DNA of 64,000 bases, taken from the IMG/VR virus record IMGVR_UViG_3300020049_006510, positions 6,049-70,048 of that record; one strand, 5' to 3'. The notes under the pieces are model-generated. The model searched no databases and was not told where the DNA came from. It saw only the letters and a list, made by a program, of their open reading frames with translations. This DNA comes from a virus (lineage: Duplodnaviria > Caudoviricetes). Shown here piece by piece: positions 11,706 through 12,108 of this stretch. The position numbers were made by a program, and so were the translations under genes. Numbering within the stretch: position 1 is the first letter of the stretch; the number at the start of each line of letters is the position of its first letter.

Positions 11706-12108
11706 TGGGGCACATACGAGAATCGAACTCGTGTTTTCCCTTAAATAATAATATATCTTTCTACAAGTTTAGTGTTTATTTTTCTTCTAACACAGAGTAA
11801 AATATTTCAATTGATGTGAAATAAATAAAGCATCATTTATGGATATTATAGTGGTTCCAATTCTTCCCACTTCCTGTCTTTTTAGGCTACCATTGCCAAT
11901 TCTGCTTCAGGAGCAGACGCAAACAAGTTCACGATTTTTGCTGAGTTGGTACGTTTTACAACAGCAAGAACATCATCAGCAGTTCCTACTTCGTTGGTTA
12001 TTACACATTTGTCAGTTAAGACTTTGATAACATAGATTAAAGTGATAGTATACCATCTCACTACTTGCTTAATACATCAAATTTAAGAGAGCATGCCAGG
12101 ATGTGCCC
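11706..12108 (-). ncRNA. ssrA: tmRNA-like RNA (atypical)
   Basis: Terminal stem GGGCACAT/ATGTGCCC; stemless D-like loop CCTGGCATGC; long-range helix TCTCTTAAAT (12090-12081)/ATTTAAGGGA (11746-11737); T arm ACGAG-TTCGATT-CTCGT; internal ATG-less frame ending AELAMVA*; ~400 nt. Confidence 0.65.

Follow-up and report, generated by a model that had tools for sequence, protein, structure and literature searches.

A tRNA-His-type acceptor end in a phage tmRNA gene from a tmRNA family of uncultured phages

Introduction

Bacterial transfer-messenger RNA (tmRNA, SsrA; Rfam model RF00023) unites an acceptor stem, a T arm and a GG-containing analogue of the D loop with a long helix P2, a pseudoknot (PK1) just upstream of the tag, a tag frame that has no start codon, follows a UAA-containing leader and ends in hydrophobic residues plus alanine, and further pseudoknots after the tag. 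The same traits are found in a gene on the minus strand, at 11707–12108, of the stretch considered here, that is, the 64,000 nt at positions 6,049 to 70,048 of the IMG/VR virus record IMGVR_UViG_3300020049_006510 (hereafter, the window); the gene runs from the nucleotide at position -1 through the encoded C74, as follows from a full-length alignment to RF00023, from homologues and from the fold. Like bacterial SsrA genes, the relatives of the window gene pass the Rfam cut-off, whereas the window gene itself stays below it, and it also differs from bacterial SsrA in having neither G3:U70 nor A73, in its 8-bp terminal helix with G-1 paired to C73, in its tag of 43 amino acids, and in its location on a phage record without an SmpB gene.

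Phage ssrA genes unaccompanied by a phage smpB, as in the window, have been described in the Bxz1 group of mycobacteriophages, in Wildcat, in DS6A and in Bacillus phage G (PMC4131195), and DS6A, with the tRNA-like domain only, provides a precedent for a phage copy that possibly acts as an SmpB decoy (PMC4131195). In contrast to these phages, the window lineage is crAss-like and uncultured, comes from freshwater and wastewater-type samples and has other hosts, and its tmRNA family is separate in sequence, with long and conserved tags. The parts of PMC4131195 drawn on here mention no non-alanine acceptor among the phage copies.

The third acceptor pair of tmRNA, G3:U70, is described as "completely conserved" in a 2014 review (PMC3985003). 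A switch from alanine to histidine has been engineered in E. coli tmRNA (Nameki et al. 1999, J Mol Biol 289:1, cited in PMC3985003 and PMC4357726; the likeness to the window gene is drawn from its title and from the citing reviews), and, according to PMC3985003, the switched RNA supported tag synthesis in vitro; this was a laboratory mutant, whereas the window gene is natural and two phage lineages preserve its arrangement. Bacterial tRNA-His and the 8-bp histidine microhelix (Francklyn and Schimmel 1990; PMC4357726) likewise have a G-1, encoded in the genome, that pairs with C73, and the window RNA shares their layout, in which 8 bp stack on a T stem of 5 bp and, once completed, a CCA of 3 nt would overhang (of which only C74 is encoded); unlike tRNA-His, it has no anticodon arm and no D stem, and the remaining stem sequence is unrelated. 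Histidyl-tRNA synthetase (HisRS) is described as depending on G-1, which is found only in tRNA-His, with the anticodon contributing weakly and mini- and microhelices being fair substrates (PMC4357726).

Acceptor end of the window gene

The two ends of the RNA form a perfect 8-bp helix, GGGCACAT (12108–12101) with ATGTGCCC (11715–11708), in which the pair 3:70 is C:G and G-1 (12108) is paired with C73 (11708); the base 5' of G-1 (12109) is T. The 5' strand GGCACAT (positions 1–7; 12101–12107) makes seven Watson–Crick pairs with 11715–11709, and the 3' strand ATGTGCC (positions 66–72), together with the following C73 and C74 (11707–11715), comes directly after the T stem. Hence the alanine identity combination of G3:U70 with A73 is absent, and there is no G:U pair anywhere in the stem; what is present is the histidine-type combination, an extra 5' G at -1 that pairs with C73 and adds one base pair to a perfect stem of 7 bp adjoining the T stem. 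Numbering the pairs 1 to 8 from the first G, in place of the G-1:C73 numbering used here, leaves the molecule itself unchanged.

The register with G-1:C73 and C74 is the natural one, since the conserved GAAAAC that precedes the T arm and the conserved CAAAT downstream of the gene are equally far apart in the window gene and in a canonical relative (L016), and since in the two ordinary tRNA genes of the window CAA comes next to base 73. The window gene encodes neither C75 nor A76; C74 is present in all relatives, and in most of them, as in the tRNAs of the window, the encoding is limited to C74. The loss of G3:U70 and A73 and the gain of G-1:C73, noticed in the first-pass annotation of this DNA, are therefore real, and they recur in a second gene, L028, with a different, compensated stem.

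Because the G-1:C73 determinant is borne by an intact tmRNA whose open tag frame is homologous to the tags of relatives, the reading that we favour, tentatively and at a little less than an even chance, is that of a functional phage tmRNA switched from alanine to histidine identity, which the host HisRS would charge and which would add His plus the tag. RNase P prefers U before the cut, and the U at -2 fits this preference. The host RNase P would cut after this U, as in bacterial pre-tRNA-His, leaving G-1 in place, host enzymes would trim the 3' end and complete the CCA, and the host HisRS, reliant on G-1:C73 and able to charge 8-bp microhelices, would load histidine. With the host SmpB and EF-Tu, the RNA would then enter stalled ribosomes, donate His instead of Ala and template the 43-residue tag ending in ELAMVA. 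Thus, the window RNA is possibly the first example from nature of a tmRNA that is not alanine-charged.

The same nucleotides bear on whether the RNA could still be charged with alanine, the host alanyl-tRNA synthetase (AlaRS), perhaps aided by SmpB, accepting it despite the missing G3:U70, or could be charged by another synthetase that reads the acceptor end. By the established rules of tRNA identity G3:U70 is the dominant AlaRS determinant, and C73 among bacterial elongator tRNAs is characteristic of tRNA-His (E. coli identity sets), so that a stem without any G:U pair and with C73 makes such charging very improbable, and residual alanylation of this stem is unlikely. On the other side, L028 keeps one G:U pair, at 1:72, and SmpB has been reported to enhance tmRNA aminoacylation (PMC3929946).

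Assignment to tmRNA and structural elements

When a 1.2-kb segment was searched with RF00023 and reported by E-value, model positions 1–374 were aligned to the window gene with both acceptor strands deleted, at 35.2 bits (E = 3e-12). The curated cut-off is 47 bits, the shortfall sits in the acceptor end, and Rfam at gathering thresholds gave no match at the gene. ARAGORN made no valid call there with default or relaxed thresholds, and at 70% produced spurious permuted calls only; this silence means little, as most canonical relatives are missed by ARAGORN too. Of the two programs proposed as checks at first pass, one was therefore mute, and the other returned a full-length alignment that remained below its cut-off.

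The 59-codon open frame that contains the tag led to five homologues in metagenome assemblies. Four of their loci (L014, L016, L017 and L018) pass the RF00023 cut-off in alignments to the full model, with, as a set, 70, 62.7, 57.3 and 54.3 bits. Since the loci of the tag-frame homologues score at this level, we conclude from the comparison of sequences that the window gene is a one-piece tmRNA gene of full length and belongs, as a diverged member, to a genuine tmRNA lineage.

From 5' to 3', all on the minus strand, the gene comprises the acceptor strand, a 10-nt loop, P2, PK1, the start-less frame, hairpins, the 3' strands of P2, AAAC, the T arm and ATGTGCC-C-C. The minimum free energy of the full RNA is -92.4 kcal/mol (z = -2.3), and its ends are closed as in tmRNA by the acceptor stem, P2 and the T arm. 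The acceptor stem, made of the 5' and 3' ends, lies beside a T arm (11716–11732, ACGAG-TTCGATT-CTCGT) that has a 5-bp stem and a canonical loop of the T-loop consensus, and there is no anticodon arm. The D-loop analogue CCTGGCATGC (12091–12100) is a stemless 10-nt loop that contains CTGG and is unpaired in the folds, its GG being nearly invariant in the family alignment. The 5' strand of P2a (12081–12090) forms 10 bp with 11737–11746 in the fold; the 5' strands of the middle part of P2 (12079–12071) and of P2b (GCAAGT, 12068–12063), which occupy 12063–12079, were placed by folds and family covariation, and the 3' strands at 11737–11768 (P2b ACTTGT, 11768–11763; middle part, 11758–11750; P2a, 11746–11737) by covariation. 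PK1 (12025–12062) contains a 17-mer common to the family, and its stem 1 pairs AGTGA (12062–12058) with TCACT (12045–12041); both P2b and PK1 stem 1 of the window gene carry the family consensus. The variable region with PK2–PK4 (11769–11881), where the Rfam alignment is of low confidence and the fold shows hairpins, is the most variable part of the family.

The tmRNA architecture proposed at first pass, with its terminal stem, CTGG-containing D loop, 10-bp helix (12090–12081 with 11746–11737) and T arm, is thus borne out by sequence, fold and RF00023 alignment. Two details did not hold: a second helix drawn between 12080–12074 and 11817–11811 is not the pairing of the family, in which this strand continues P2 with 11758–11750, and the "altered GAC motifs" are not special to the window copy, as canonical relatives also vary at those positions.

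Phage tmRNA family

The PK1 17-mer matched 44 IMG/VR contigs, and all 44 matches were tmRNA genes; a degenerate 20-mer derived from the tag yielded further genes from viral and metagenome contigs, and a third tag motif one more canonical gene, L108. The search for homologues suggested at first pass recovered 45 distinct complete family genes from viral and metagenome contigs, including the second gene with an unusual acceptor. The 20-nt tag motif of the long-tag subgroup had no true match among 185,579 prokaryote species (one genome each), the seven matches there being chance ones in unrelated coding DNA. Judged by these motifs, the genes of the long-tag subgroup occur in phages alone.

The tags form two classes. 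Long tags, including that of the window gene, comprise 41–44 residues of the form (D/G)xxVITNEVG..ADVLAVVK..SAKVI..AP.AELELAA, and shorter ones about 21–26 residues ending in VAVA, VTVA or VAA. The acceptor stems of the 45 genes have 17 different sequences, all fully paired, full pairing being also a criterion of the search. In 43 genes we observe G3, U70, CC at 71–72 and A73, the exceptions being the window gene and L028; in most canonical relatives T directly precedes G+1.

A lack of covariation in the long-range helices would, as had been pointed out at first pass, refute the proposal made there. In the alignment of 25 long-tag genes, P2b, PK1 stem 1 and the T stem were paired in 99% of the cells and showed double changes in 12 of 16 pairs, which none of 500 shuffles reached, and sliding the 3' partners lowered the pairing to 39–51%. 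P2b and PK1 stem 1 were 98–100% paired with double changes, P2b having A-U replaced by U-A in seven sequences and U-A by C-G in two, and PK1 stem 1 having double changes at all five pairs in relatives; the T stem covaries in the family at five of five pairs.

In sequencing runs, at most 27% of the words of the window gene were present. Contigs do occur, also in metatranscriptome (RNA) libraries, whose identity to the tag, PK1 and P2 is about 98%, which is a hint of expression; since none of them reaches the acceptor or the T arm, they say nothing about the odd end or about the RNA termini.

The T arm of some family members departs from the usual form. The short-tag gene L058 contains a group I intron in the T loop (L058:7242–7458; RF00028, 75 bits against a cut-off of 50), and seven other short-tag genes (L021, L027, L029, L042, L044, L050, L052) have the same layout, the T arm breaking after GGGTT and being followed by sequence similar to the L058 intron. 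The T loop is ATCGTAC instead of TTCGANT in the alanine-type members L015, L025, L078, L087 and L090, and L063 and L065 have still other T arms. In the long-tag gene L072, on a contig of 1381 bp, the T arm is lost after GGGTTCGATTC, with unrelated sequence beyond, possibly because of an intron, an insertion or a break in the assembly.

Tag reading frame

The tag frame occupies 11882–12013 on the minus strand. It resumes at GAC (12013–12011) after TTAACT, has 43 codons, ends with the stop TAA (11884–11882) and encodes DKCVITNEVGTADDVLAVVKRTNSAKIVNLFASAPEAELAMVA, with the C-terminus ELAMVA; there is no start codon, and no indel or stop within the frame. The peptide has no Pfam match. Two possible frames had been proposed at first pass; the 43-residue one stands, and the 37-residue one has a wrong start, since both the Rfam alignment and 22 relatives place the resume codon at this GAC. 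In these relatives a conserved TAA precedes the resume codon, GAC or GGC, by five or six bases (TAA-N2-3, then G(A/G)C).

Tags are roughly 10 residues long in most bacteria. The description of the window tag as unusually long is thus correct, but the length is not peculiar to this copy: it is common to the alanine-type relatives and is unlinked to the odd acceptor. The length (41–44 residues), frame and sequence of the tag are kept in the 22 relatives, and so the second ground on which the proposal was to be abandoned, a tag frame that is not conserved, did not materialise either. Compared with its closest relative, L014, the window tag has seven synonymous and ten non-synonymous codon differences; several replacements fall in the C-terminal half, and the ending is MVA, not LAA.

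The conserved frame is relevant to the possibility that the RNA is an uncharged decoy, being made and folded, charged by no synthetase, and binding the host SmpB and perhaps ribosomes, so as to damp host trans-translation during infection. The loss of the alanine determinants agrees with this, as does the lack of an SmpB gene, which was stated for the window at first pass and extends to the whole 70-kb record (about 40% complete) as well as to four related phage records. Moreover, DS6A carries little beyond the tRNA-like domain of tmRNA, and a molecule of this kind is a strong inhibitor of tmRNA whether or not it can be charged, perhaps because it titrates SmpB (PMC4131195, citing Mao 2009). 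Nevertheless, we consider a decoy unlikely, as it needs no 43-codon open frame with the family resume context and a hydrophobic-alanine ending, whereas both histidine-type genes keep such a frame, and would not need the specific arrangement of G-1:C73 with C74 present in both; besides, related phages keep fully canonical, chargeable versions, which suggests that the role of the family is tagging, not blocking.

A second gene with a histidine-type acceptor

The gene L028 (the same contig as L080) lies on a 91-kb record that is 97% complete. It shares with the window gene C73, G-1 paired with C73, T at -2, C74 and the absence of G3:U70; its pair 3:70 is G:C, and its one remaining G:U pair is G1:U72 (2:71 if counted from the first G of the helix). 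As with the window gene, ARAGORN misses it, and its RF00023 score, 43.6 bits, is below the cut-off. Four of the seven acceptor pairs differ between the two genes, all of them compensated; the T stem and P2a also differ with pairing kept, the 10-bp P2a of L028 being made of a different sequence. Mini-constructs consisting of the tRNA-like domain and P2 gave identical folds for both, with an 8-bp acceptor, a 10–12-nt loop, a 10-bp P2a, the upper P2 and the T arm. A scan of IMG/VR viral contigs specific for C73-C74 returned L028 only, with no further copy.

The lowered Rfam scores (35.2 bits in the window gene and 43.6 in L028, against 54–70 in relatives), the long branch of the tRNA-like domain, and the replacements in the C-terminal half of the window tag with its MVA ending could also mean early decay, with alanine identity lost by mutation, the gene drifting, and the resemblance to tRNA-His being coincidental. 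However, the window gene has lost none of its helices: the 8-bp acceptor and the T arm are perfect, the latter with a canonical loop, P2a has 10 bp, and P2b and PK1 conform to the family standard. The tag frame has suffered neither indel nor stop, and the changes in the acceptor 3' strand re-establish complete pairing one position out of the former register, something that drift would not bring about. The same rare combination is moreover found in L028, whose tag DNA is 94% identical to that of canonical relatives and ends in LELAA. Decay is, in our view, distinctly improbable.

The two phages are distantly related (terminase, 25% identity; portal, 23%). In the tree of PK1 and the tag, the window gene groups with L014 and L094, and L028 with L074, L041 and L025, all these relatives being of the alanine type. 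In the tree of the tRNA-like domain and P2, both genes have long branches (window, 0.89; L028, 0.35) within a polytomy, so this tree does not settle whether they are sisters. In addition, the PK2–4 segment of L028 (L028:3130–3260) is almost identical to that of L020, the end of which is canonical and alanine-type; the tRNA-like domains and P2 of the two genes differ throughout. On the evidence of these trees and alignments, these tmRNA genes are mosaics in which the tRNA-like domain behaves as an exchangeable, maintained module; the L028/L020 mosaic in particular points to recombination between phage tmRNA genes. The histidine-type module may have had one origin or two. We also considered C at position 8 as a shared derived mark of the window gene and L028, and dropped it, as the canonical L108, L026 and L094 have C as well.

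Weighing of the histidine reading

In its wider form the favoured reading is that natural histidine-charged tmRNAs exist in at least two crAss-like phage lineages, the tRNA-like module having been rebuilt or swapped into a tRNA-His-type acceptor; to this, too, we would give slightly less than an even chance. It is supported by the presence in the window gene of every module of a one-piece tmRNA, kept by compensatory change, and by the diverged gene L028 with exactly the same combination of G-1:C73 and C74 without G3:U70 and A73.

Several observations weigh on the other side. Only two genes have the trait, possibly of one origin, so that statistics of co-occurrence are not independent, and the branch of the tRNA-like domain (0.89, against 0.078 for the window's own tag domain) also fits relaxed constraint. 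A potential U-1:A73 pair exists in most of the canonical relatives, for which cleavage is presumably still at +1, and hence the retention of G-1 is an assumption. HisRS also contacts parts of its substrate outside the acceptor end, and the tag ends in MVA rather than LAA. The phage records searched contain no gene tying such a system together, neither HisRS nor Thg1 (records of the window phage and of the L028 phage) nor SmpB. Finally, the contigs from RNA libraries do not extend into the tRNA-like domain, and DNA may be their source.

If the histidine reading is correct, rescued host or phage proteins would receive His and a phage tag of 42–43 residues, and the phage would gain a channel of rescue and tagging independent of the host AlaRS or of the identity of the host's own tmRNA. 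A natural tmRNA with the histidine mark of tRNA would be the first exception to the conserved G3:U70 and would carry the test-tube result of 1999 into biology; nature itself would show that trans-translation does not need alanine, and the old question of why tmRNA is always charged with alanine would become testable. G3:U70 is built into annotation tools, and both odd genes escape ARAGORN and the Rfam cut-off.

The tmRNA family itself, in crAss-like and other uncultured phages, is, by the homology searches made here, newly recognised. It is sizeable, unannotated and, within the reach of the motifs, restricted to phages, with conserved tags of 41–44 residues, mosaic exchange of domains and, in some members, group I introns in the T loop; this suggests that many uncultured phages of freshwater and wastewater-type samples manipulate the ribosome rescue and protein tagging of their hosts.

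Phage record and genomic context

The window is a part of a 70-kb virus record with an estimated completeness of about 40% (CheckV), which encodes a crAss-type major capsid protein, a muzzle protein, a terminase and a portal. The minus strand is the coding strand for the genes of the first 24 kb, and the tmRNA gene lies on the same strand. A scan for promoters and terminators at the gene found nothing exceeding shuffled sequences.

Neither the tmRNA gene nor 25 kb of the window had a BLAST match among GenBank phages, and an exact 22-mer from the 3' end of the gene had none in IMG/VR. Contigs reached via the terminase were short and without a tmRNA gene. A neighbouring protein of 142 amino acids led to a 146-kb relative, G006, which has tRNAs only, none of them near the homologue of this protein, and to the loci L109 and L110, where the genes are located close behind the homologue; on a JGI 3300059473 contig, the neighbour protein is 67% identical, and an open reading frame of 55 amino acids is situated at the expected place of the tag frame.

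ARAGORN reported three tRNAs in the window. One of them (17719–17791, minus strand) has the acceptor AAGTGTG/CACACTT with G before and C after it, which makes it the second G-1:C73 arrangement of this phage; the anticodon loop comprises 8 nt (CTGAAAAG), and ARAGORN calls a four-base anticodon, gaaa. Another (14455–14528, minus strand), called Ser(tga), lacks a long variable arm, has mismatched acceptor and anticodon stems and scores 50 bits with Rfam. The 300 nt upstream of the window tmRNA gene (12109–12422) contain no recognisable RNA family, unlike several relatives in which a tRNA gene, Arg-tct or Met-cat, precedes the tmRNA gene by 5 to about 55 nt (L014:1011–1084, L016:272–345, L015:299–373).

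A reverse transcriptase gene (RVT_1; L018:1989–3011) lies about 1 kb downstream of one tmRNA relative, and an IS605 OrfB/Cas12f-like gene (L110:1925–3121) is found on a contig that encodes a homologue of the 142-residue neighbour protein of the window.
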